In this document: in pieces, positions 1 to 32,000 of the stretch
Numbering within the stretch: the stretch's first letter is position 1
How the letters are laid out: each line of letters opens with the position of its first letter
Assembly: GCA_016205145.1 (NCBI GenBank)
Contig: JACQJH010000001.1
Span: 1-32,000 of the forward strand
DNA length: 32,000 nucleotides
Origin: Candidatus Iainarchaeum sp.
GTDB lineage: Archaea; Iainarchaeota; Iainarchaeia; Iainarchaeales; JACQJH01
Reading direction: 5' to 3'
Position numbers and translations under genes: made by a program
The notes under the pieces: model-generated
Told to the model about the DNA's origin: nothing
The model's database searches: none
The model's input: the letters and a program-made list of their open reading frames with translations, nothing else

Positions 1-71
1 GGGTGGGGCAGCCAGGAGTGCCCGTCGGGCTCATAACCCGAAGGTCGAAGGTTCAAATCCTTCCCCCGCTA
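1..71 (+). tRNA. initiator tRNA-Met (anticodon CAT); about the first 4 nt of the acceptor stem are cut off by the window edge
   Basis: The cloverleaf is readable by eye. D arm GGGC-AGCCAGGAGT-GCCC (6-23). Anticodon arm TCGGG-CTCATAA-CCCGA (25-41), with CAT at 32-34. Variable loop AGGTC. T arm GAAGG-TTCAAAT-CCTTC (47-63). Acceptor 3' strand CCCCGCT (64-70) plus discriminator A71; no CCA is encoded. Three G:C pairs close the anticodon stem and an A1:U72 pair is implied, which together are the archaeal initiator signature. Confidence 0.9.
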
Positions 72-1005: not shown

Positions 1006-1572
1006 TCAGGGTGTTTTGGCCGCCGTATAAAAGGATTTTAGGCGCTCTGATTTTGGGTAAAGCTCCTTAAACCAAACATTACCCGTGAGCTTTCTTGCTG
1101 TTTCCACTGCAATAGTTTTTATGGCTGGGTCGCCGGAACCAACCAAGGCAGATTCGACTCTGGCTGGGGTGTCGCCTGAAAGAATTTTGGTCCGGTCTAG
1201 CAGTGCCTCAAGCGCGGAAACCGCCTCTTTTTCGCTTACGTCTTTCTCGTTAAGGTAGTAAACCGCTTTCCAATCCCCTTTTGTTTGCCATTTGTGGGTC
1301 GGGTTTTTGCCTGTTTTGAAAAAATCTGTGAGTTCCTGAAACGCGTCAGGCGGGATTATGACACAGCTTTTGCCGGCGCGGATAAAAGGAAATTTTGACA
1401 GAACGCCTTCGCGGTGGTATTGGTAGTTTTTGCCGTTTGATTTGAAAACCGCCTGGGTGTAGCCGTAGATCGCCCGGAAGAGTTTTTGGTAGGTATAAGA
1501 GGAGTGTTTTGTGTTTTCGGGAAGAATGAATTTGTATTGGATGAAATAACCTTTAACGCCCATGGGCCCCAC
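1006..1572 (-). CDS. hypothetical protein, 188 aa, no family recognised
   Basis: Long ORF with protein-like composition. An AT-rich upstream region (1573-1685) contains the inverted repeat CATTAT-N10-ATAATG (1608-1629). It is on the same strand as the PRC-barrel and recombinase genes. Confidence 0.6.
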   Translation of the reverse strand: MGPMGVKGYFIQYKFILPENTKHSSYTYQKLFRAIYGYTQAVFKSNGKNYQYHREGVLSKFPFIRAGKSCVIIPPDAFQELTDFFKTGKNPTHKWQTKGDWKAVYYLNEKDVSEKEAVSALEALLDRTKILSGDTPARVESALVGSGDPAIKTIAVETARKLTGNVWFKELYPKSERLKSFYTAAKTP

Positions 1573-1685
1573 ACTTCCACTATTTAATATAATTAAGTAT
1601 TTGAAAGCATTATGTATATATTTATAATGTCAATTTATCGGCTGATAACGAACAATATAAACATAACTCTTTGTTTTTTGTTCTT

Positions 1686-1976: not shown

Positions 1977-2195
1977 GAAATATCCCTCCCCTATTAAGCG
2001 TATTATAGAATGGAATTTAAATATTTAAATCTATCTCACCTGCCGCCAAGCGGCTTGTTTGGGGTTGGTTTGCCGGGCCGGCCCACGGGCCGGTGTCCAA
2101 GATTTTGTGTTTTTACTTCTGCTGCCGCCGGCGGTTGCCCCCGGCCCGTGGTTTGGGTGAACGCAATAGTGGAAGTGCCGCCCCGCCGGCCGGTT

Positions 2196-3170
2196 TTATT
2201 TTATTTTTATTTTGTCCAGCGGGCTCTCGACTTTTTTCAGCTGGTCCGTTGAAACCGCGGTGTAAATCTGTGTCGTGCTGAGGTTTGAATGGCCGAGAAG
2301 TTCCTGTATTTTCCTGATGTTTTCCCCCCCTTCAAGGAGGTGCGTGGCAAAGCTGTGCCGCAGTGAATGCGGCGTCACCTTTTTCTGTATGCCTGCGCGG
2401 CCGGCTGCTTTTTTTACTATTCTTTGCACTGTGTCGGTTGACAGCGGCTTTGAATTGCTTTTTTTCGAGAACATGAATTCGGACGGGATCTTTTTTCCTT
2501 CCAGGTATTTTTTTGCTTTTTTGCACCAGTCCTTTGACAGGATTATGACCCGGTCCTTGTTGCCTTTCCCGCCTTTTACTCTGGCCATCTTTTCTGCAAG
2601 GTCAAGGTCGGCAACCTTCATTTTCACGCATTCGCTTACCCTGACCCCGGAAGAGTAAAGCAGTTCCACTATCAGGCGGTTGCGCTTTTTTTTGATCGCT
2701 TTTATAAGGGCTATTACTTCCGGCACGGAAAGCGTTGTCGGCAGATGCTTTGCCTTTTTCGGCCGCTTTATTTCATCCACTATCCCCATTTTCAGGTATT
2801 CCTTGAAGAAGAACCTCAATGAGGCCAGCACCAAGGCAAGCGTGGCGTTGCCCGCGTTGCCTTTTTCCTTTTTGTGCGCGAGAAACGAGACAACGTCTTC
2901 TCGGCTGCAGGTTTCGGGTTTTTTTTTCACAAACGCAAGGAATTCCTTAACGTACATCGTGTAGGTTTCCATGGTCTTCTTGCTGTAACCGGTTATGAGT
3001 AGTTCCTGCCGGAAACGCTCAGCGGTTTTTGCCATGTCCTGTTCAGTGCCGCCCCCCGCCTTGCCTTGCTCTGCCGCCGGCTCCCCCCCGGTTTTTCCTA
3101 GGCCGCCTGTACGGGCAGTTTGTTGCGGCATATTGTTTTGCCCCTGCCGGGAGCCGGTTTTTTCCTGCAT
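2196..3170 (-). CDS. tyrosine recombinase, XerA / XerC-XerD family (chromosomal resolvase or element integrase; cannot be distinguished here)
   Basis: Catalytic signature: ELLYSSGVRVSE (Arg), HSLRHSFATHLL (H-x-x-R), LGHSNLSTTQIYTAV (His, Tyr). There is a SAM-like N-domain (YSKKTMETYTMYVKEFLAF). A 45-aa Gly/Gln/Thr-rich N-terminal extension precedes it; an alternative start is M46 at 3035. A TATA-like ATAAATATAAAAG on the minus strand (about 3196-3208) sits about 21 nt upstream of the ATG at 3170, which supports the long form. Confidence 0.9.
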   Translation of the reverse strand: MQEKTGSRQGQNNMPQQTARTGGLGKTGGEPAAEQGKAGGGTEQDMAKTAERFRQELLITGYSKKTMETYTMYVKEFLAFVKKKPETCSREDVVSFLAHKKEKGNAGNATLALVLASLRFFFKEYLKMGIVDEIKRPKKAKHLPTTLSVPEVIALIKAIKKKRNRLIVELLYSSGVRVSECVKMKVADLDLAEKMARVKGGKGNKDRVIILSKDWCKKAKKYLEGKKIPSEFMFSKKSNSKPLSTDTVQRIVKKAAGRAGIQKKVTPHSLRHSFATHLLEGGENIRKIQELLGHSNLSTTQIYTAVSTDQLKKVESPLDKIKIK

Positions 3171-3822: not shown

Positions 3823-3981
3823 GGCCCCGCGTTCCCTATTTTTTGCGCTTTTCGTAAAAAAGGTCTCCTTTTCAGGCTAGCGATGGCTATTTTGGATTAA
3901 TCTGGCTTGGCTGCTTTCATCGGGCGGCAGCTGGGCCGGCAGGCCTGCAGTTTGGTTGTCCGGCATGGCTGGTGTTTTGCC

Positions 3982-4438: not shown

Positions 4439-5194
4439 ATGTCGGAAGCTGATGTTAACAGCCTTTTTCTTGAGCTTGGGTTGACGGAATACGAGTCCAA
4501 AACGCTTTCCACCATCCTGAAACTTAAGGAAGCCGAGGCGCCTGACATCAGCAGGCTTGCGCAGGTTCCGAAGACCCGCGTCTATGACGTTTTGGACAAG
4601 CTTATCAGGCGCGGCCTGATAATCGAGATTTCCGGCAGGCCCAAGAAATACCGCGGCATAGACCCCTCCGAATCAGTGAACCTTTTGCTTAACGAGAAGA
4701 AAGCCGGTTTGAAGGCATTGGAGTCGAAGGCAAACGGTGTAAAACAGCTTTTTTTGTCCGCAGGCCAGGGCATTGCAACCGCCGAAGAGAAGGTCCTCAA
4801 AGTGAAGGACAAATCCGATTTTGAAAGGATTCTTGCGCAGGAGCTTGAAAGCGCGGAGTCAAGCGTTGTCGGTTTCACTGCTTTGGAATCAGAGTCCTCT
4901 GTGCTGGCGAACGCGCTTGAGAAGGCGAAGAACAAGAACGTCACAATCCGGCTGGTCAACCACGCGCCAACGGACGCAATCAAAAAGCATGCCAGGGACA
5001 TCGGCCTGAACGTCAGGCATTCCAACCACGGCCTCACCGCATTTGTTGTTGACGACAAGAAAGTCGTGCTTGCATTGAGCGACACCGAGAAAAGCCCGGA
5101 ATACCATTTTGCAATCTGGTCCGACAACAAGGCAATGGCTTCCATGCTGCAGGGCTATTTCGACAAGCACTGGGATGCCGGAAAGCCCATTTAA
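4439..5194 (+). CDS. TrmB-family transcriptional regulator
   Basis: The N-terminal wHTH LGLTEYESKTLSTILKLKEAEAPDISRLAQVPKTRVYDVLDKLIRRGLI is the classic TrmB N-domain. The length of about 250 aa fits a TrmB C-terminal domain. The ATG at 4439 is preferred over the GTG at 4430. Confidence 0.85.
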   Translation: MSEADVNSLFLELGLTEYESKTLSTILKLKEAEAPDISRLAQVPKTRVYDVLDKLIRRGLIIEISGRPKKYRGIDPSESVNLLLNEKKAGLKALESKANGVKQLFLSAGQGIATAEEKVLKVKDKSDFERILAQELESAESSVVGFTALESESSVLANALEKAKNKNVTIRLVNHAPTDAIKKHARDIGLNVRHSNHGLTAFVVDDKKVVLALSDTEKSPEYHFAIWSDNKAMASMLQGYFDKHWDAGKPI

Positions 5195-5366
5195 ATTCTG
5201 CCAACCGCGCAAACCAACTTAAAAACACGCCAAAGCGCAAACGCCCGAAGATACACACAAATTCTTGGACGACCGGTTTCGTCCGGCTCGCCGTCACGTC
5301 CGGCGGGTACGTGCGCTATCTTCGATAGCGCTGCCTCGCTTTGCTCGGAACGGCTGGTTTGACGAC

Positions 5367-5442
5367 GGGTACTTCGCAAAATCCAAGATTTTACGACGTG
5401 CCCAGAATCTTCGGATTCTGGAGCATTGCTGTTGCAATACCC
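5367..5442. ncRNA. copy 1 of a recurrent predicted four-way-junction element: closing helix GGGTA/TACCC plus three hairpins
   Basis: H1 is AAAATC-CAA-GATTTT (5378-5392). H2 is CCAGAATC-TTCG-GATTCTGG (5402-5421). H3 is ATTGC-TGTT-GCAAT (5425-5438). It is homologous to 31563-31640, with loop-only or pairing-preserving differences. The transcribed strand is unresolved. Confidence 0.45.
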
Positions 5443-5526
5443 AGCTACCTTCTTTTCGCTTCGATTCTTTCATTGCCCACCTGCATTTTTTAATAGTTAG
5501 GCGCACTAATTGGTTTTGTTGGTTTT

Positions 5527-7208: not shown

Positions 7209-7715
7209 TTAAGTTGTCCGTTTTCTATGTGCCGGGTCAATAGTGCCCCTGAGTTCCGGCATGCGTGCCGCAAAGATTTCATTTGCACTGCCCCTAATCC
7301 ACTGGTCGGTTGACAGGGTCCGTTTGACTGCCGTTAGGGCATTGACGTGCAGGGATCTTCTTTCCGTGCCGGGCGCCCCGGGGTTTCCAACGGGCCTGCC
7401 GTTTTTGTCCGTCACTAAAATGTGCACATATCGGGTGTGGTCTTCCCCGAGGATTTTGCTGATTGGCGGGCCGAGGTCGTATATGACCTGGCCAGTGCGC
7501 GGGTCAACCCTTCGGCCGTCTTTATATGACATTGAACTGAGACCTTCGGAGTCGACCGGAATGGCTTTGATATAATAAACCGGATTGCGCTTCTCGGCTT
7601 TCGCCCGCCTTTCGGCGGCTATCCGCCTTGCTTCGCCGGGCTTTACCAGCCTTCTTCCGGCCGCTTTTTGCGGCCGCCTTGTTTCTCCGGGGCCTGAAGT
7701 CATTCGCAGTGGCAT
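7209..7715 (-). CDS. hypothetical protein with an Arg/Lys-rich N-terminus, no family recognised
   Basis: 168-aa ORF. A minus-strand TATA-like TTAATAAT sits about 23 nt upstream of the ATG at 7715, which is leaderless geometry. The antisense ORF 7243..7575 looks less protein-like. Confidence 0.5.
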   Translation of the reverse strand: MPLRMTSGPGETRRPQKAAGRRLVKPGEARRIAAERRAKAEKRNPVYYIKAIPVDSEGLSSMSYKDGRRVDPRTGQVIYDLGPPISKILGEDHTRYVHILVTDKNGRPVGNPGAPGTERRSLHVNALTAVKRTLSTDQWIRGSANEIFAARMPELRGTIDPAHRKRTT

Positions 7716-7940
7716 GCTTTACTCTTTCTCTATTCTGATTATTAAGTTTTTCTCCGGTTTTGGTTATTGCAAGCCGTTCTAGGCAAAGCCGCAACCAAAA
7801 TTGTTAATGCGATGGCACGCGCGGCATCCTCCGACAGGCGTGTGCCGCAAAGTTCCGCGTGCGCGGGCAGGCCGCTTGGGCGGAATCGGCTTTTTAAGCT
7901 TTTTTGTCGCAGAGTATGTCAATCGATTCAATTCGAATTT

Positions 7941-15544: not shown

Positions 15545-16102
15545 ATGCCTGACCCGCTTTTTTTCGCGCTTGACCTTTCACTAGTCCTGCTGCCATACGC
15601 GTTCATCTGCGCTTCAAAGAAACTGAATCCATTCCGCATGGATTCAGTGAAGGCTTTTCTTGCGGACCTTCGCCTGAAACCGGAAATTTCAAAAAAAGCG
15701 TTTTTCCAGGCGCTTTTTCTTGCGCTTGCATTGCTGCTGTTTTCTTCCGCGCTTTCGTTCGGCCTTGAAATGGCGGGCCTGAACGACCTTGAAAAAGTTG
15801 ACGATGCCATAAGCGGCATTTCATCGCGCCCGTTTTTTCTTGCATACGTCCTGCTCGTCGCGGTGCCCGCCGAGGAGATTTTTTTTCGGGGCTTTCTTGT
15901 GAAACGCACCGGCGCAGTCATGTCGTCAGTTTTGTTCGGCCTGGCGCACATTGGTTTCGGCTCCATGGCAGAGATTCTCGGCGCTTTTGTCCTCGGCCTT
16001 GTCCTCGCAAAGGCGTTTGAAAGGAACCAAAACCTTTTTCCCAACATTTTTGCCCACATGCTTTACAATGCCGGAGTGGTTTTGCTCGCGGTGATTGCTT
16101 GA
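15545..16102 (+). CDS. CPBP-family (CAAX/Abi-like) intramembrane metalloprotease
   Basis: Motifs EEIFFRGFL, FGLAHI and H..YN in a polytopic hydrophobic protein. Confidence 0.8.
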   Translation: MPDPLFFALDLSLVLLPYAFICASKKLNPFRMDSVKAFLADLRLKPEISKKAFFQALFLALALLLFSSALSFGLEMAGLNDLEKVDDAISGISSRPFFLAYVLLVAVPAEEIFFRGFLVKRTGAVMSSVLFGLAHIGFGSMAEILGAFVLGLVLAKAFERNQNLFPNIFAHMLYNAGVVLLAVIA

Positions 16103-16716
16103 AAACGAAAACAATTGTCCTCTCGGAAAAAAATTTTCCCTCCGCTGTTGAAGCCGCATGCAGTGTTTTGCGCAAAGGCGGGCTTGTGGTCTATCCGACC
16201 GAAACATGCTATGGCCTGGGCTGCATTGCAACGGACGGGAAAGCCGTTGCAAAGGTTTTTGCGGCAAAAAGGCGCGGCCCGGAAAAAGCGCTTTCCATAA
16301 TCGTCTCCGGCGTTCCGATGGCAGAAAAGTTTGCAGTTCTCGATGGCTGTTCAATGCGCCTCGCCAAAAAATTTTTTCCCGGCCCTCTGACGCTTGTCAC
16401 GGAAAAGACTCAAGCGGTTCCGGATGTTCTGAGCAAAGATGGCATCGCATTCAGGGTTTCATCGAACAGGTTTGCGTGCGCGGTTGTTGAAGCCCTGGGC
16501 GCGCCCATTGTGAGTTCGAGCGCGAACTTCGAGGACGAACCGGAAATTTATTCCGGGAACGCTGTGGCAAAAAAGTTTTCGGGCACCGCCGATTTGGTTG
16601 TCAATGCGGGCGTTCTTGAAAAAAATGTTCCTTCGACGATTTTTGACTGCCGAGCAAAGATGATACTGCGCGAGGGCGCGATTTCCGCAAAAGAGGTTTT
16701 CCGCGCCTTATCCTAA
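16099..16716 (+). CDS. L-threonylcarbamoyladenylate synthase, short YrdC/Sua5-type (t6A pathway)
   Basis: LVVYPTETCYGLGC, LSIIV, PGPLTLV and VSSSANF motifs. The TTG start overlaps the upstream stop (TTGA). Confidence 0.9.
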   Translation: MKTKTIVLSEKNFPSAVEAACSVLRKGGLVVYPTETCYGLGCIATDGKAVAKVFAAKRRGPEKALSIIVSGVPMAEKFAVLDGCSMRLAKKFFPGPLTLVTEKTQAVPDVLSKDGIAFRVSSNRFACAVVEALGAPIVSSSANFEDEPEIYSGNAVAKKFSGTADLVVNAGVLEKNVPSTIFDCRAKMILREGAISAKEVFRALS

Positions 16717-17253
16717 AAAGAATGCGAAGATTCCTGCGGCAAACAGGAATTTCAGGACTTCTGAGTTGTGGAAAATTTTGAGCGTCCAAACCAGCGCAAT
16801 CGTGGGAACGAACACTATCACGGCATAAACAGTCCAGAACGCCTTTGTTATCGCGCCTGTCCTCGCATTCATTTTCCTGTCAAACGACCTCGAAAGGCTG
16901 TTGTACGCGTTTTCCGCGTCGTGGTCGCTGGGAAAAGCATAATACAGTGTCGAGAACCCGAGCCACCAGAAAAGGTATTTCATTGCCTGGCTTTGCGCGG
17001 TCTGGCTGAAAAGCAGGAACTGCACTCCGAGGAATGCGCCCACAAAAAATGGCGCAATGCTTATCAGCACCGCAGCCAGGGTCGACCTTGGCCGCTCATG
17101 TACGACATACGCCGGGCCCTGCAGGCTGAACAGTTTTACCCTGTAAACCCTCACTCCTGCGAGCAGTGAAAAAACGTAGTGGCCCAGCTCGTGGATTATC
17201 ACGCCCGGAAAAAGCAAAAACCAGAACACGCGCAGACTCTGCATTATGGGCAT
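16708..17253 (-). CDS. polytopic membrane protein with an HExxH motif (putative membrane-embedded zinc metalloprotease), paralogue A
   Basis: GVIIHELGHYVFSLLAGVRVYRVKL...ISIAPFFVG...YYAFPSDHDAENAY. It is clearly paralogous to 19833..20360. Its 3' end overlaps the Sua5-type gene 3' end by 9 nt (convergent). Confidence 0.65.
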   Translation of the reverse strand: MPIMQSLRVFWFLLFPGVIIHELGHYVFSLLAGVRVYRVKLFSLQGPAYVVHERPRSTLAAVLISIAPFFVGAFLGVQFLLFSQTAQSQAMKYLFWWLGFSTLYYAFPSDHDAENAYNSLSRSFDRKMNARTGAITKAFWTVYAVIVFVPTIALVWTLKIFHNSEVLKFLFAAGIFAFFLG

Positions 17254-17282
17254 TTTCGTATCATACCACTTCTAGTCTAATC

Positions 17283-17292
17283 TTTAAAAAAA
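17283..17292 (+). promoter_or_regulatory. TATA-like box upstream of kae1
   Basis: TTTAAAAAAA lies about 30-40 nt upstream of the ATG at 17322. Confidence 0.4.
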
Positions 17293-17321
17293 GGTTTTTG
17301 CAGCAGATTCTTCCGGTTTAC

Positions 17322-18314
17322 ATGATTTGTTTGGGAATAGAAAGCACCGCCCATACCTTTTCGGTCGGCATTGTCTCGGATGACAACGCAAAATGCAACA
17401 TTCTGGCGAACGAAAAAAGCGCTTTCACCGCAAAGGAAGGGGGCATCCATCCCGCCAAGGCGGCGGAGCACCATTTTGAAAACGCGCACGGCGTTTTCCT
17501 TCGCGCCCTGAAGAATGCAGGCATCCGCGAAAGCGAAATAGACGTTGTTTCTTTTGCGCAGGGTCCAGGCCTCGGCCCGTGCCTTCGCGTCGGCGCGATT
17601 GCCGCAAGGACGCTTTCATTGAAACTCGGCAAACCATTGGTCGGAGTCAACCATTGCGTTGCCCACGTCGAAATCGCAAAAGCCCTTACCGGAGCAAAGG
17701 ACCCGATAACGGTTTATTCTTCGGGCGCGAACACCCAGATTATCGGCTACGAGAACAAACGCTATAGGGTTTACGGCGAAACCCTTGACATTGGCATAGG
17801 AAACGCATTGGATTCTTTCGGCAGGGCGCTCGGCCTGGGCTTTCCCGCAGGCCCGGTCCTGGACAAAATGTATTTTGAGGCGATGCGGGAAGCTTTTGTC
17901 GAACTGCCGTATTCGGTCAAGGGCATGGACCTTGTCTTTTCCGGCCTTGTCACTGCGGCGGAGCAGAAAATCGGAAAGGTTCCGGAAAAGGCTCTGGCTT
18001 ATTCTTTCATGCACACTGCCTGCGCAATGCTTTGCGAGGTTGCGGAAAGGGCCTTGGCTCACACGGAAAAAAAAGAACTGATGATGACGGGGGGAGTTGC
18101 TGCAAGCAGGGCCTTGCGTGAAATGCTCGGCAGGATGTGCGAAGCCCGCGGCGCAAAACTGTTTGTTCCGGACTGGCAGGTGTGCGTGGACAACGGTGCA
18201 ATGATTGCATGGCAGGGTTTGCTTGAATTCAAAGCGGGAAACAGGACAAAAATTTCCGACAGCCGCGTGAACCAGAAATTCCGCACCGACGATGTTGAGG
18301 TCAACTGGATTTAA
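17322..18314 (+). CDS. kae1: tRNA N6-adenosine threonylcarbamoyltransferase Kae1 (not fused to Bud32)
   Basis: MICLGIESTAHTF, metal-binding HCVAHVE, GGVAAS and CVDNGAMIAW motifs. The internal ATG at 17322 gives 330 aa. The upstream ORF part overlaps the divergent membrane gene. Confidence 0.95.
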   Translation: MICLGIESTAHTFSVGIVSDDNAKCNILANEKSAFTAKEGGIHPAKAAEHHFENAHGVFLRALKNAGIRESEIDVVSFAQGPGLGPCLRVGAIAARTLSLKLGKPLVGVNHCVAHVEIAKALTGAKDPITVYSSGANTQIIGYENKRYRVYGETLDIGIGNALDSFGRALGLGFPAGPVLDKMYFEAMREAFVELPYSVKGMDLVFSGLVTAAEQKIGKVPEKALAYSFMHTACAMLCEVAERALAHTEKKELMMTGGVAASRALREMLGRMCEARGAKLFVPDWQVCVDNGAMIAWQGLLEFKAGNRTKISDSRVNQKFRTDDVEVNWI

Positions 18315-18914: not shown

Positions 18915-19110
18915 GCATATCAGTTGGCTTTTTTGGTTAAAAAAGGTTTTGGCAAGCCGTCTCGTCCGGCTGGTACGAACTAAGGCGTGTCCCTGCCGTG
19001 ACACGCCGAGTGAGCATATCCGTATTTAGTGGCTTGTAAAGGAGAGTACTCCATCCAGCGCGGACTCGCTTGGCCGAGCGCAGGATTTTATTCTTCCGCA
19101 GCATTGTCTT

Positions 19111-19836
19111 TTGTTAATGCGCAGAGATTCCGCGGTTGTGCCTGCAACAAGACAGCATAAAGGGGCAGTTCCAGAGCGTCGGTTGTCTACAAAGGAGCTG
19201 GCACTGCGGCAGACGAGATTACGATTGCGCCGTGCCAGGGAAGTCCGGCACAGCACTGAACGCGGCGCTTTTGTAAAGAAATTCAAGAATTTTGTAGGGC
19301 GCGCAGAACACCGCATAGCCGGTGGGCGCATAGCTCTCCTCGGCTTCGGCTCAGATAACGATCTTGCGCAAAAAGGCGCAGTGGCCATTTCATTCGGGCG
19401 TGACATTCTCGGGGTTGCGCGCATCCGTTTTTCTGAGCCGGACCGGCTTGGCCGGGTCGCGGTTTTGATTGACGAGTTCCAGGGCGAAGGCGGCTCACGC
19501 GAAGCACAGAGGCAAAATTTCCGGCAAAAGAACGGCGCGCCTTGGAATGTTGTTTTAGTGCGGTCGATTATTGATGCCGCGTATAATGCCGGCTTCAACC
19601 GCGTGCTGTTGCAGGACCCGAAAACAATCGAAGGCTATGAATTTCCGGTTCCCGCCCAAGGTGTTGACCTCTTTGAAGACGCTCCCGCATTATTTTTACC
19701 CCAAGCGCAAGCCGAGGTCAGGACCCGGATGGAAAAACTCTACAATTGGACAAAAAGAGACTGCGATTTCTCCGGCGAGGACTGGCTTGAGGTTGGCGGC
19801 AAAAAACGGCATTACTGGGTCAGGGAATTTCCTTAA
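19111..19836 (+). CDS. hypothetical protein; the coding status of the 5' third is doubtful
   Basis: 241-aa ORF. The C-terminal 150 aa look protein-like (WNVVLVRSIIDAAYNAGFNRVLLQDPKTIEGYEFP...YWVREFP). The first 55 or so residues are Arg-rich and lie in a locally GC-elevated stretch that also carries a long antisense ORF. There is no ATG between 19117 and the C-terminal region. Confidence 0.35.
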   Translation: MLMRRDSAVVPATRQHKGAVPERRLSTKELALRQTRLRLRRAREVRHSTERGAFVKKFKNFVGRAEHRIAGGRIALLGFGSDNDLAQKGAVAISFGRDILGVARIRFSEPDRLGRVAVLIDEFQGEGGSREAQRQNFRQKNGAPWNVVLVRSIIDAAYNAGFNRVLLQDPKTIEGYEFPVPAQGVDLFEDAPALFLPQAQAEVRTRMEKLYNWTKRDCDFSGEDWLEVGGKKRHYWVREFP

Positions 19837-28426: not shown

Positions 28427-30856
28427 ATGGCTAACGCTGACTTTCACGCGATTGAAAAGAAGTGGCTTGACTACTGGCGCAATGAAGGCGTTTACAAGTT
28501 TGACCAGAGTTCGAAAAAGCCTGTTTTCAGCATTGACACGCCTCCCCCGACTGTTTCCGGGAAAATGCATTTGGGCCACGCTTTTTCCTACTGCCAGGCG
28601 GACATGATTGCAAGGTTCAAGCGCATGCGCGGCTTTGAAGTGTTTTATCCTTTCGGATTTGACGACAACGGCCTTGCAACCGAGCGTTTCGTGGAAAAGA
28701 GCAGGAACATCCAGGCGAAAAATTTTTCGCGCGAAGAGTTCATCAAAATCTGCCTTGATGAAACCAGGAAAGCCGAGGAACAGCTTCAAAAGGATTTTTC
28801 CAGCCTCGGCTTGAGCGTCGACTGGTCGCTGGTCTACAGGACGATTGACAATTTCGCGCGAAAGCAGGCCCAGCGCAGTTTTTTGGACATCCATGCAAAG
28901 GGTAGGCTTTACCAGCGCGAGGCGCCTGCAATGTGGTGCCCGAAATGCGAAACATCGATTGCGCAGGCCGAGCTTGAAGACATGGAAAAGGACAGCAGAT
29001 TCGTGCACATCCGCTTTGATGTCGAGGGCGGAAAAAGCATTGTCATTGCCACGACCAGGCCGGAGCTTCTGCCGGCATGCGTCGCATTTTTCGTGCACCC
29101 GGACGACAAGCGCTACGCGTCATTTGTTGGCAGGAAAGTGAAAATTCCTTTTTCGGACCGCACCGTCCTTGTGCACGCGAGCGACAAAGCAAAGCAGGAT
29201 GTTGGAACCGGCGCGGTTTACTGCTGCACTTTCGGAGATTTGACTGACGTCGAATGGGTTATGGAATTCGGCCTCCCGATAATTGAAATCATCGGCAAGA
29301 ACGGCGTTCTCAATGACAAAGCTGGAAGGTTTGCAGGCAAAAACGTTTTGGATGCGCGCAAGGAAGTTGTCGAGGCGCTTGAGGCGGATGGCAGGGTCAT
29401 GAAAGTCGAGCCGTTGAGGCACGTTGCAAACGTGCATGAGCGGTGCAAGACGCCGGTCGAGATTCTCACTTCCAAGCAGTGGTTTGTCAAATACCTTGAT
29501 TTGAGGGAAACTTTCATTGGCAGGGGAAAAGAAGTGAAGTGGACTCCCGAGCATATGCGCGTGCGCTTTGACAACTGGATTAACGGCTTGAAATGGGACT
29601 GGAATGTTTCACGGCAGCGCTTTTTTGGCGTGCCATTGCCGGTGTGGTATTGCAAAAAATGCAAAAAGCCAAAGCTCGCTTCCCCGGAAGATTTGCCGGC
29701 CGACCCATTGCAGTCCAAGCCTAAAGGAAAATGCTCTTGCGGCTCTTCCGAGTTCGAGCCGGAGAAAGACGTTTTGGACACCTGGTTTACATCGAGCCTG
29801 ACGCCGCAGATCAACTGCAAGTGGCTTGAGGATGAAAAACTGTTCAAGAAATTGTTCCCGATGTCCTTGAGGCCGCAGGCGCACGACATCATAACCTTGT
29901 GGGCGTTCAACACGGTCGTGAAAGCGCATTTGCATTCGAACAGCCTGCCCTGGAAGCAGATAATGATTTCAGGCCATGCCCTCGATCCGAAGGGAAGGAA
30001 AATGTCCAAATCTTTGGGCAACGTCATTGCGCCGCAGGACATGGTTTCAAAATACTGTGCTGACGCATTGCGCTACTGGAGCGCTTCCGCCTCGCTTGGC
30101 GAGGACGTGCCGTTCCAGGAAAAGGAAATGGTTGCGGGCCAGAAGTTTTTGTCCAAGCTGTTGAATGCGGGAAAATTCGTTTCAGGTCTGACACAAGGGA
30201 TTTCGCTTGAAGATTTCAGGAATGAAAAGAAAAACCTGCGCCCGACGGACAAGTGGATTTTGAGCAGGCTCAACACTCTCAAGAAGTCCGTGACCGAAAG
30301 CATGGAATCATTCGACTTTTTCCGCGGCCTGAATCCCGTGCGCGACTTTTTCTGGCTTGAATTCGCGGACTATTACATCGAAGAGGTCAAGTACCGCGCT
30401 TACGACGAAAGCAATCCTTCCTGCAAAGCGGCGAAGCTGACTCTTCTGTCAGTTTACCTTGACTGCCTGAAAATGCTCTCGCCCTTCCTCCCGTTCGTGT
30501 GCGAGGACATAATGCAGTCGCAGTTTTCATCGCACCTCAAAGCCAAAAGCATTCATCTCGAGGAATGGCCGGGTTTCGACGCAACGCTTGTTTCGGATCA
30601 GGCCGAATTCGAAGGCGAAACGTGCAACTCGATCGTGTCGGCCTTGCGCAAGCTCAAGTCCTCGCGCAGCCTTGCAATGAACGCCGAACTCGGAAAGGCT
30701 GAAATTTTCGTTTCCTCGCCGAAGGCGGAGACCGCAGTGAAAGCGGTTTTGGAGGATGTCTGCGGGACAATGAACGTGAAAAGCCTTGCCGTTTCCAGGG
30801 CAAAACCCGCGGAAGGCGCGGTTAAAGTTTCGGAGGAAGTTTTTTTGTCGGCCTGA
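28427..30856 (+). CDS. valS: valyl-tRNA synthetase
   Basis: IDTPPPTVSGKMHLGHAF (HIGH), an editing-domain-sized insertion, and KMSKSLGNVI (KMSKS); 809 aa. The flanking sequence fits ValRS better than LeuRS or IleRS. Confidence 0.92.
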   Translation: MANADFHAIEKKWLDYWRNEGVYKFDQSSKKPVFSIDTPPPTVSGKMHLGHAFSYCQADMIARFKRMRGFEVFYPFGFDDNGLATERFVEKSRNIQAKNFSREEFIKICLDETRKAEEQLQKDFSSLGLSVDWSLVYRTIDNFARKQAQRSFLDIHAKGRLYQREAPAMWCPKCETSIAQAELEDMEKDSRFVHIRFDVEGGKSIVIATTRPELLPACVAFFVHPDDKRYASFVGRKVKIPFSDRTVLVHASDKAKQDVGTGAVYCCTFGDLTDVEWVMEFGLPIIEIIGKNGVLNDKAGRFAGKNVLDARKEVVEALEADGRVMKVEPLRHVANVHERCKTPVEILTSKQWFVKYLDLRETFIGRGKEVKWTPEHMRVRFDNWINGLKWDWNVSRQRFFGVPLPVWYCKKCKKPKLASPEDLPADPLQSKPKGKCSCGSSEFEPEKDVLDTWFTSSLTPQINCKWLEDEKLFKKLFPMSLRPQAHDIITLWAFNTVVKAHLHSNSLPWKQIMISGHALDPKGRKMSKSLGNVIAPQDMVSKYCADALRYWSASASLGEDVPFQEKEMVAGQKFLSKLLNAGKFVSGLTQGISLEDFRNEKKNLRPTDKWILSRLNTLKKSVTESMESFDFFRGLNPVRDFFWLEFADYYIEEVKYRAYDESNPSCKAAKLTLLSVYLDCLKMLSPFLPFVCEDIMQSQFSSHLKAKSIHLEEWPGFDATLVSDQAEFEGETCNSIVSALRKLKSSRSLAMNAELGKAEIFVSSPKAETAVKAVLEDVCGTMNVKSLAVSRAKPAEGAVKVSEEVFLSA

Positions 30857-30965: not shown

Positions 30966-31508
30966 ATGAAACGGCTTTTTCTGTGCGCCCTGCTTTTGGC
31001 CCTGTTGTCTGGTTGCGCGGATTCGGGTTCCTTCAAGGAAAAATTTGACGCCTTGCAGCGCACCGAAGCGAACTTTCATTCTTCAGGCTTGACTCCGACT
31101 GAGATTCCGAAGATTGTCGCACTGCAGTCCGAGCTGAACAAGGTGAAGGTCTCATTGTCCAAGCAGCCGCGCTCGTCCGAGAATTCCGCGCTCACGTCGC
31201 TCATTGACGCGAAGTTTGACCTGCTTGAAATGCGCCTGTCTTTCGAGAAAGGCAAGCTTGAAATGGCGAAAGCCAAGTTCTCCGAAGCCGATTGCCGCGC
31301 CGGCGGCGCGCTTGTCAACGCCGCAGATTTTTTCGAGAAAGCAACTGTTTCCGGGTCAAGCGCAAAATCCAGGTTCCAGTCGTTTTTCAAGAATTATCCT
31401 GCCGAGGCTAAGCAGACCGGCATTTCATTGCAGGATGTTTCCCTGACAATCGATCTGATCGCCGAAAACGCCGCAACACTGCGCGACGGCGTCCTTGGCT
31501 TGTGCTGA
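30966..31508 (+). CDS. putative lipoprotein
   Basis: The signal peptide MKRLFLCALLLALLSGC ends in a lipobox-like LSGC. The mature part is hydrophilic. Confidence 0.7.
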   Translation: MKRLFLCALLLALLSGCADSGSFKEKFDALQRTEANFHSSGLTPTEIPKIVALQSELNKVKVSLSKQPRSSENSALTSLIDAKFDLLEMRLSFEKGKLEMAKAKFSEADCRAGGALVNAADFFEKATVSGSSAKSRFQSFFKNYPAEAKQTGISLQDVSLTIDLIAENAATLRDGVLGLC

Positions 31509-31562
31509 CGCGTTTTCGACCGCGTGTGCCGCGGCGATTTCGTCCGCCGGGTCCGAAACTAA

Positions 31563-31640
31563 GGTCTTCGTTGCAAAATCTTGGATTTTGCGACGTGCCC
31601 AGAATCTTTGGATTCTGGGGCATCACTGTTGTGAAAGACC
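31563..31640. ncRNA. copy 2 of the recurrent predicted four-way-junction element: closing helix GGTCTT/AAGACC plus three hairpins
   Basis: H1 is GCAAAATC-TTG-GATTTTGC (31573-31591). H2 is CCCAGAATC-TTTG-GATTCTGGG (31598-31619). H3 is TCAC-TGTT-GTGA (31623-31634). It matches copy 1 at 52 of 62 ungapped positions (counted by hand). Confidence 0.45.
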
Positions 31641-31708
31641 GAGTAAGGGGTTGTTAGATTTCAGGGGCGTGCGAGGGGGCGGAGCCCCCTGCGTCGGGAT
31701 TAAGGCGT

Positions 31709-31734
31709 ATCACTGTTGTGAAAGGCCGAGTAAG
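31709..31734. repeat. partial third copy: the H3 hairpin plus the 3' flank of the element, repeated 87 nt downstream
   Basis: ATCACTGTTGTGAAAGGCCGAGTAAG differs at one base from ATCACTGTTGTGAAAGACCGAGTAAG (31622-31647). Confidence 0.6.
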
Positions 31735-31778: not shown

Positions 31779-32000
31779 ATGGCCGTTTTTGAAAACGAAT
31801 TGCTTGTCGCGCGCGGAGCCGAAGCGGAACTCTTCAAATCCGAATACCTTAGTTTGCCGGTGCTTGTGAAAAGGCGCGTCCCGAAATCCTACCGGAATCC
31901 AGTGCTTGATTCGCGCATCCGTTCCGAGCGGACTGTTGCGGAGGCAAGGCTTTTGCATAACGCAAAGGCATTCGGCGTCAGGGTTCCCGCGGTTTTGCGC
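31779..32000 (+). CDS. bud32: Bud32/PRPK-type serine/threonine kinase (KEOPS subunit), N-terminal part; runs off the window
   Basis: Translating by hand from the ATG at 31779 gives MAVFENELLVARGAEAELFKSEYLSLPVLVKRRVPKSYRNPVLDSRIRSERTVAEARLLHNAKAFGVRVPAVLR. The GAEA glycine-loop variant, VKxR, YR..LD and RT..EAR pattern is typical of Bud32. The frame stays open to the end of the window. It is absent from the ORF track because there is no stop codon. Confidence 0.8.
   Translation, partial: MAVFENELLVARGAEAELFKSEYLSLPVLVKRRVPKSYRNPVLDSRIRSERTVAEARLLHNAKAFGVRVPAVLR

Follow-up and report, generated by a model that had tools for sequence, protein, structure and literature searches.

The DNA analyzed here (the window) is a stretch of 32,000 nt, positions 1 to 32,000 of contig JACQJH010000001.1 from the archaeon Candidatus Iainarchaeum sp. 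It is archaeal housekeeping DNA encoding GluRS (GltX), an L7Ae-S28e-L24e-NDK cluster, S6e, aIF2-gamma, Kae1, Sua5 and DnaK/DnaJ, as well as a class I aminoacyl-tRNA synthetase (28427-30856). The nearest relatives of GluRS among GTDB species representatives belong to Candidatus Iainarchaeum metagenome-assembled genomes (MAGs), with 49-57% identity, and a protein identical to the TrmB-family protein (4439-5194) is named Candidatus Diapherotrites in NCBI. Two spacers between tandem genes, TrmB-gltX and hypothetical gene (30966-31508)-bud32, each contain a copy of a composite palindromic element that folds into a four-way junction and is the subject of this work. Copy 1 (5367-5442, plus strand) and copy 2 (31563-31640, plus strand) score 93 and 103 bits, respectively, with covariance model R1.

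The likeness of the two segments, on which the original prediction of a recurrent structured element was built, is confirmed. Ungapped alignment of 5376-5437 with 31573-31634 yields 52/62 identities, whereas no other 62-mer match in the window exceeds 32/62; the same pair is returned by a repeat search of the window (family D5). Both copies fold into a closing helix and three hairpins (H1, H2 and H3) with RNA or DNA parameters and on either strand; their fold z-scores range from -4.8 to -8.9, with 0/200 shuffles as stable. For the four filled copies that are now available (see below), RNAalifold returns the same four-way-junction structure, and the helices that diverge between copies stay complementary in all four. 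The architecture needs one correction. CTTCG and GACGTG, previously described as joiners, mostly pair with each other. Consequently, H1 is a 12-bp stem, and the junction is almost without unpaired bases. Most of the ten differences between the copies are as originally described, i.e., the H1 loop (CAA/TTG, an exact reverse complement), a C/T change in the H2 loop, two compensatory pairs in H3 and two A/G changes. The A/G change at the foot of H2 affects a site that is A/G/G/C in the four copies and that is more plausibly a variable bulge.

The closing helix and H3 prove to be the outer and inner parts of one continuous hairpin of 9-10 bp, with a TGTT loop, a 5' flank of CTAAGG and a 3' flank of CCGAGTAAG. 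As RNA, it has a UGUU loop, preceded by (C)UAAGG and followed by CCGAGUAAG. H1 and H2 together form a 54-nt insert in the 5' strand of this host hairpin, four pairs from the loop, and the position in the stem is identical in 4/4 filled copies. In copy 1, the host stem reads GGGTA^TTGC TGTT GCAATACCC (the caret marks the insert), with GGGTA at 5367-5371, the insert at 5372-5425, TTGC at 5426-5429, the loop at 5430-5433 and the 3' strand at 5434-5442. Within this insert, H1 (5372-5398, plus strand) is a 12-bp palindrome with a CAA loop and two mismatches (U.C and C.A), and H2 (5399-5425, plus strand) is an 11-bp palindrome with a TTCG loop and a bulged A. The host stem of copy 2, GGTCTT^TCAC TGTT GTGAAAGACC, is flanked by CTAA (5') and GAGTAAG (3'); GGTCTT lies at 31563-31568, the insert at 31569-31622, TCAC at 31623-31626 and, after the TGTT loop, the 3' strand at 31631-31640. 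The insert of copy 2 consists of H1 (31569-31595, loop TTG) and H2 (31596-31622, loop TTTG). A different host stem, GGCGTA^TGC CGTT GCAACACGCC, is found in L059 (of which L060 is a duplicate), one of the loci recovered from relatives, which are designated here by L numbers. H1 and H2 resemble each other at 16-19/27 positions when aligned in the same orientation and share the core CA(A/G)AATC..GATT(T/C)TG, their common unit form as RNA being CA(A/G)AAUC-N3/4-GAUU(U/C)UG. The variable parts of the insert are its loops (CAA, TTG, TTG and CGC in H1, TTCG or TTTG in H2) and the bulge. The exact inversion of the H1 loop suggests a signature of hairpin template switching.

The host hairpin occurs more often without H1 and H2 than with them. 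Across the roughly 55 kb of sequence searched for this lineage (the 32-kb window and about 23 kb of relatives), there are 4 filled and 6 empty hairpins. The empty ones lie in the window at 31704-31727 and 18984-19007, in L055 (two), in L058 and in L050, where the unit was found with R2, a covariance model of the empty hairpin. Copies 1 and 2 differ in which of the empty hairpins their host stem resembles. The hairpin at 31704-31727 (hairpin C, plus strand), GGCGTATCAC TGTT GTGAAAGGCC with flanks TTAA and GAGTAAGC, scores 54 bits with R2 and has two uncompensated mismatches (TAC to AAG in the 3' strand) relative to its L055 orthologue and L058 counterpart. Its 3' strand now equals that of copy 2, situated 87 nt upstream, which suggests local gene conversion between these neighboring units. 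In unit D (18954-19015, plus strand; 52 bits with R2), a module AGCCGTCTCGTCCGGCTGGTACGAACTAA is followed by the insert-free hairpin at 18984-19007 (GGCGTGTC CCTGCCGT GACACGCC) and then by GAGTGAGC, a 34-nt stretch of the unit being identical to a unit at another locus of the relative (L055). The two simple hairpins of L055, both in the hypothetical gene-bud32 spacer, read CTAA GGCGTATTGC TGTT GCAATACGCC GAGTATGC and TTAA GGCGTATCCC TGTT GTGATACGCC GAGTAAGC.

Covariation separates the two components of the element. In nine host hairpins, 91% of the cells are paired, and 7/13 pairs are changed on both sides. None of 500 shuffles reaches the observed percentage of pairing or the covariation score, and when the partner is shifted by 1-3 columns, pairing falls to 30-41%. 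Within the four filled copies, double-sided changes are confined to the closing helix and H3. H1 (12 pairs) and H2 (11 pairs) show none at all, their variation being limited to one U.G/C-G alternation, one apical U.G and two mismatches in copy 1. Therefore, it is the host hairpin that is the selected or self-maintained structure, and the four-way junction follows from nesting. Hence, the earlier proposal that the structure is under selection stands in the sense that structure rather than sequence is kept in the host hairpin, but it does not extend to the four-way junction, in which H1 and H2 are optional and show no covariation. Since the compensatory changes all fall in the closing helix and H3, which form one hairpin that is commoner without H1/H2, the four-way junction is more likely to result from nesting, or to be an optional module, than to be the selected unit. 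Hairpin-templated repair can likewise generate compensatory changes and perfect arms in the absence of selection.

The element recurs, as originally proposed, in four distinct filled copies, two of them in the window and two in metagenomes of a congener (L058 and L059); a scan of JGI metagenomes with the pattern CGACGTGCCCAGAATCNNNNGATTCTGG gave 3 matches, corresponding to 2 distinct copies. This congener, recovered from ENA and JGI metagenomes, has a TrmB-family protein that is 84% identical and a hypothetical protein that is 69% identical to those of the window. The copies belong to larger arrays. Alignment of seven spacers reveals common modules in differing combinations, with module-level insertions and deletions, as in mosaics of the bacterial interspersed mosaic element (BIME) type. 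The repertoire consists of a pair of small GC hairpins (loops ..CGTCC..), a variable hairpin, a linker, the host hairpin in filled or empty form, GAGTAAG, another linker that includes a GGGGGC hairpin, and a second host hairpin. Units are co-oriented within arrays. In array 1, the upstream modules (5267-5366, plus strand) comprise the two short GC hairpins (5267-5311), a variable hairpin with a cUUCGg loop (5313-5331) and the linker TGCCTCGCTTTGCTCGGAACGGCTGGTTTGACGAC. They also occur, with a different but fully complementary variable hairpin, after another gene in a 94%-identical relative (L054), and they are present in L058 as well. In each of these three copies, the stem of the variable hairpin is entirely different yet complementary. 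Array 2 has a short form of the upstream modules (31509-31562, plus strand), which begins immediately after the stop codon of gene 30966-31508. The linker between copy 2 and hairpin C (31641-31703, plus strand), with the hairpin AGGGGGC GGA GCCCCCT at 31674-31690, is conserved in L055 and L058.

At a given locus, arrays differ between close relatives. The window has 333 nt between the TrmB-family gene and gltX; the corresponding spacer of the congener has 150 nt, lacks the element and can be aligned only over the promoter-proximal 36 nt. In the relative's hypothetical gene-bud32 spacer, the hairpin is empty and of another type, and in the 94%-identical relative, modules of the array-1 type are located 3' of the hypothetical gene. 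L058 is nearly identical to copy 2, including the downstream linker and second hairpin. Over its 192 nt, array 2 shows 94.8% identity to the array of L058, which occupies a different locus, and the coding DNA of window and congener shows 70-80%. Thus, the arrays behave as repeated, recombining or mobile DNA: their module content varies at the same locus, they recur at unrelated loci and their similarity is far above that of the genes. Assembled Logan contigs of the window's own organism stop inside arrays, two of them ending or starting exactly at the H1|H2 joint, and these breaks suggest that the genome holds further array copies.

The units lie in varied genomic contexts. In addition to the tandem spacers of copies 1 and 2, a unit is found in a convergent spacer (L058, bordered by an intron-containing tRNA and a transglutaminase-like gene at one end and by a convergent HerA-like gene at the other end), and others lie in divergent spacers (L059, between an unknown gene and an MBL/beta-CASP-like gene, and unit D of the window). 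Consequently, the units are neither uniformly 3' untranslated region (UTR) elements nor operators of particular genes. The association with tRNA-related genes (gltX and bud32) noted in the original prediction is coincidental, the relative's copies adjoining unrelated genes. As for the strand, a minus-strand transcript had been considered, with an AT-rich box at 5474-5485 as its promoter. This box is the TATA box of gltX and is conserved in the congener without the element. The G.U evidence points instead to the plus strand, on which three pairs (seven cells) are G.U; on the minus strand, only one C.A position would become G.U. The plus strand also carries cUUCGg and cGCAAg tetraloops, and a T9 tract lies 3' of the L058 array on the sense strand. 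The element is probably transcribed on the plus strand.

Comparison with known families gave no match to a known RNA, in line with the original prediction. When both spacers and the related loci were searched against Rfam 15, at the gathering threshold and at E<=10, only tRNAs were returned (window 1-71 and L058 1394-1518), and ARAGORN found no tRNA at the element. Inspection by eye for C/D box, H/ACA and kink-turn RNAs identified no boxes and no tandem G.A motif. An archaeal bulge-helix-bulge intron was also rejected; such introns need two 3-nt bulges separated by 4 bp at both insert boundaries, and no bulge of 3 nt occurs where the 54-nt insert meets the host stem, the junction being fully stacked. 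An origin-recognition box or integron attC site does not fit either, with no orc1/cdc6 gene present, flanking genes that are housekeeping genes and a tyrosine recombinase (2196-3170) that is syntenic in the relative. The pattern CGACGTGCCCAGAATCNNNNGATTCTGG had 0 matches in GTDB species representatives, scans of viral contigs gave none or chance matches only, and plasmids and phages contained nothing similar by BLAST. Loci of Iainarchaeum, Woesearchaeota and Nanoarchaeota yielded no copy with model R1. When R2 was scanned over these loci plus those of Bathyarchaeia and Ignisphaera, its only match, in L006, was a palindrome holding the conserved L7Ae-side TATA box (described below) and not a family member. 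A protein search with a spurious open reading frame (ORF) reading through array 2, aimed at other arrays, produced no matches.

Together, these findings make it reasonably likely that the element belongs to a lineage-specific family of mosaic intergenic palindromic repeats, present in this Diapherotrites/Iainarchaeota archaeon and its close congener and analogous to bacterial repetitive extragenic palindromic (REP) sequences and BIMEs. The element would then be a kind of repeat already known, in a new form, rather than a new class of RNA. Its basic unit would be the 9-10 bp hairpin with a UGUU loop, some copies of which carry the nested 54-nt double palindrome and hence form the perfect four-way junction. 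The hairpins presumably matter when single-stranded, most likely as plus-strand RNA in read-through or UTR transcripts, where they might, like bacterial REP/BIME, form barriers at 3' ends or serve in termination or insulation. They could instead matter as single-stranded DNA during copying or transposition, or the perfect arms and free loops might be kept by hairpin-templated repair without any selection. A DNA repeat had been the fallback of the original prediction, to be favored if copies were flanked by target-site duplications. The gain, loss and reshuffling of arrays between close relatives favor that fallback, although no such duplications were found.

Among bacterial systems, the comparison covers REPs tagged with GTAG or CGTC (PMC3733652) and REPIN-RAYT systems (PMC3116915). 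REPs are imperfect extragenic palindromes of 20-40 nt that number tens to hundreds in a genome, and RAYTs (REP-associated tyrosine transposases) are Y1 HUH transposases whose genes often have REPs on their flanks. As in REP, BIME and REPIN, the palindromes are short and extragenic (24-27 nt, with 27 nt each for H1 and H2 and 24 nt for the host hairpin), and all lie in spacers. Stems kept by compensatory change, mosaics with conserved linkers, intergenic positions often just 3' of stop codons, lineage-specific sequences and presence or absence that differs between close relatives are further shared features, as is likely transcription as RNA hairpins. In contrast to the bacterial repeats, the host is an archaeon of the DPANN group, no RAYT was seen in the scanned ORFs, units are co-oriented within arrays instead of forming head-to-head dimers and one pair of palindromes is nested in the stem of another, which creates a four-way junction. 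REPs have an unpaired GTAG (or CGTC) head at one end of the palindrome. Here, GTAG is absent, and CGTC is confined to the interval between H1 and H2, where it directly adjoins H1 on the minus strand (plus-strand joiner GCGACGTG), and to certain loops, those of the upstream modules among them. The stems lack an A/T start, and the loop has 3 nt rather than the 4-5 nt of CGTC REPs (PMC3733652).

The family is also analogous to repetitive hairpin elements of mitochondrial genomes, which have conserved stems and variable loops and form double hairpins by adjacent insertion (PMC2800124). Like those elements (PMC2800124 and the works cited there on Allomyces, yeast GC clusters and rice), the units described here are very small, combine conserved stems with variable loops, include double hairpins of adjacent units, are inserted at scattered intergenic sites in a way that differs between close relatives and encode no transposase. 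Unlike them, they reside in an archaeal chromosome rather than in organelle DNA and share no sequence relationship with them, and their double hairpin is invariably nested at a single site within one particular host hairpin. Miniature inverted-repeat transposable elements (MITEs) and palindrome-associated elements derived from IS200/IS605 are likewise small, noncoding, structured intergenic repeats in which hairpins are the feature that is recognized, and IS200/IS605-type insertion would not be expected to leave target-site duplications, but no terminal inverted repeats, target-site duplications, conserved target site or cognate transposase were found here, and 54 nt would be unusually short. 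Finally, the length of 76-78 nt and the four-helix junction recall the four-way-junction RNAs of Rfam (e.g., the hairpin ribozyme) and tRNA cloverleaves. The element differs from these in matching nothing in Rfam or ARAGORN, in lacking D-loop or T-loop features, in having a junction without conserved unpaired nucleotides and in the optional nature of two of its four arms.

Several observations weigh against the repeat interpretation. No target-site duplication accompanies the insert in the three host contexts compared (GTA|..|TTGC, CTT|..|TCAC and GTA|..|TGC), and in these contexts, the insert has no terminal inverted repeat beyond its internal palindromes. No transposase, whether of the RAYT, IS200/IS605 or another type, was seen among the ORFs of the window and the scanned ORFs of L058 and L059. 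Since no orthologous filled/empty pair for the 54-nt insert was found among the recovered loci, insertion and precise deletion of H1+H2 are indistinguishable. Moreover, every recovered insert sits inside a host hairpin at one and the same position, so the composite could itself be a functional unit. Because the L059 unit and unit D lie in divergent spacers, they cannot be 3' UTR elements. L058 may stem from a closer relative than L050/L055, which would weaken the contrast between 95% identity of arrays and 70-80% identity of coding DNA. In addition, the orthologous 3' part of the hypothetical gene-bud32 spacer is 91% identical between species and the adjacent gene 70%, which would also be expected from purifying selection on a functional RNA.

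Some of these points agree with a new structured noncoding RNA family, acting in trans or as a cis-regulatory UTR element, in which the four-way form would be a functional variant maintained through selection for RNA structure and the simple hairpins reduced paralogues. Strong covariation of the closing helix and H3, a very stable fold, G.U pairs and UUCG/GNRA loops on one strand, arrays that are more conserved than neighboring genes, the constant position of the insert and TATA-like boxes 8-40 nt 5' of several arrays on the sense strand are all in keeping with such an RNA. We nevertheless regard it as unlikely, since H1 and H2, which make the junction, never covary, loops and bulge vary freely and the congener's orthologous TrmB-gltX spacer does without the element. 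Hairpin C has decayed through uncompensated changes, contexts are mixed (tandem, convergent and divergent spacers), arrays 3' of the hypothetical gene begin at its stop codon without a promoter of their own and there is no Rfam match. Lower still is the likelihood that the 54-nt H1+H2 block is a tiny nonautonomous mobile element, a "double-hairpin element" or minimal IS200/IS605- or RAYT-type substrate, inserting as single-stranded DNA specifically into the host stem. Its two palindromes are adjacent and mutually similar, its arms are invariant and its loops variable across species, the inverted H1 loop (CAA versus TTG) suggests hairpin template switching and the host stems of copies 1 and 2 each match a different empty hairpin. 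CGTC abutting H1 on the minus strand compares with CGTC-tagged REPs (PMC3733652), and there is precedent in mitochondrial genomes for elements with conserved stems and variable loops and for double hairpins from tandem insertion (PMC2800124). However, no copy was found outside a host hairpin, there is no duplication, the left flanks (GTA, CTT and GTA) share no target tetranucleotide, neither the window nor the loci with scanned ORFs revealed an HUH or other transposase, no filled/empty orthologous pair was found and 54 nt is shorter than known IS200/IS605-derived elements.

That H1 and H2 are double-stranded operators of a dimeric transcription factor, e.g., the adjacent TrmB-family regulator, controlling gltX and bud32 is very improbable. 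The perfect, invariant half-sites with free central spacers, the location of both window copies upstream of promoters and the TrmB-family gene adjoining copy 1 would fit an operator. The TrmB/TrmBL (TGM-like) operator motif of Thermococcales is TATCAC-N5-GTGATA, and some host hairpins resemble it, reading TATCAC-TGTT-GTGA(T)A. Yet the spacing is N4 and not N5, half-sites of the host hairpin change by compensation, unlike those of operators, and the sites are always embedded in a hairpin repeat. Furthermore, the congener retains the TrmB-gltX pair but not the element, the genes around the L058 copy are convergent and leave it no promoter downstream, and the distance to the TATA box ranges from ~50 to ~140 nt. 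A bolder version of the repeat interpretation holds that these are undescribed self-propagating structured modules of a DPANN lineage, a prokaryotic counterpart of the mitochondrial elements, in which a 54-nt double hairpin enters or leaves the stem of another conserved hairpin without target-site duplication or terminal inverted repeats, and the hairpin and four-way-junction RNAs so formed are maintained by selection as functional parts of transcripts. The last part is proposed because the arrays are more conserved than the surrounding proteins, but we consider this version improbable as well.

If the element is indeed a mosaic palindromic repeat, it has implications beyond this locus. DPANN genomes are small and compact, and their repeat families have barely been described; here, a palindromic family is better conserved between congeners than their proteins. 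Nested palindromes that generate a perfect four-way junction would offer a good opportunity to study how such elements spread when no transposase is obvious and which roles hairpin repeats have in archaeal transcripts. In practical terms, the arrays break short-read assemblies of this lineage and can be mistaken for novel RNA genes, since covariation alone cannot separate a selected RNA from a self-maintaining palindromic repeat.

Several minor observations were made in the same DNA. A tRNA-Met(CAT) at 1-71 of the window is followed by ~400 nt (72-470) that are strongly A/C-rich and G/T-poor, with runs such as CAAAAA and ACAAAAAAACC. The relative's tRNA-Met is flanked on both sides by the same A/C-rich style (L050 1610-1833 and 1911-2184), this style of composition being conserved in both organisms. 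About 2 kb from tRNA-Met lies the tyrosine recombinase gene (2196-3170, minus strand), with Phage_integrase and SAM-like N-terminal domains. Because it has the same neighbors in the relative (L050 4054-4974), this suggests a resident Xer-like recombinase and not a recently integrated element. A motif, CACAAATTCTTGGAC, is found in the window at 5256-5270 (plus strand) and 2095-2109 (minus strand, one mismatch) and in L050 at 1614-1628 (plus strand) and 3939-3953 (minus strand). It lies 4-100 nt 3' of the stop codons of four genes (TrmB-family, recombinase in both organisms and TFIIE-alpha), always in the sense of the gene, and may be a 3'-end or termination signal.

Three genes of the t6A (N6-threonylcarbamoyladenosine)/KEOPS pathway are found within 16 kb: Sua5/YrdC (16099-16716), Kae1/TsaD (17166-18314) and bud32 (31779-32000). 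The name bud32 is that of the original prediction; the 74-residue fragment has no Pfam match. Next to unit D, ORFs at 19026-19598 (minus strand) and 19111-19836 (plus strand) overlap on opposite strands, with no Pfam match for either. Codon-usage scoring favors the plus strand (about 0 versus -0.41), which indicates that the minus-strand ORF is spurious. In the spacer beside the L7Ae cluster, a TATA-like box, G(C/T)TTAAAAAGCC, is conserved on the L7Ae side in the window (7716-7900, minus strand), in L050 (9300-9432, minus strand) and in a distant Iainarchaeum MAG (L006 3047-3085). In L050, this box is followed by a hairpin-repeat array on the minus strand. The corresponding site of the window holds ~170 nt of a different structured sequence, and the gene adjoining the spacer (7209-7715) has no detectable homologue in L050. 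The intron-containing tRNA of L058 (1394-1518, minus strand), probably tRNA-Gly-GCC, has a 55-nt intron and scores 45 bits with Rfam, having been missed by ARAGORN. About 100 nt 3' of it lies a 13-nt duplicate of its 3' end (CCCGGTGGTCGCA; 1281-1293, minus strand). A palindrome, AAAACTTTT-N3-AAAAGTTTT, occurs twice in L058, once in the tRNA intron (1461-1481) and once just before the duplicate (1296-1316), and the L058 repeat array begins 4 nt after the duplicate of the tRNA 3' end.

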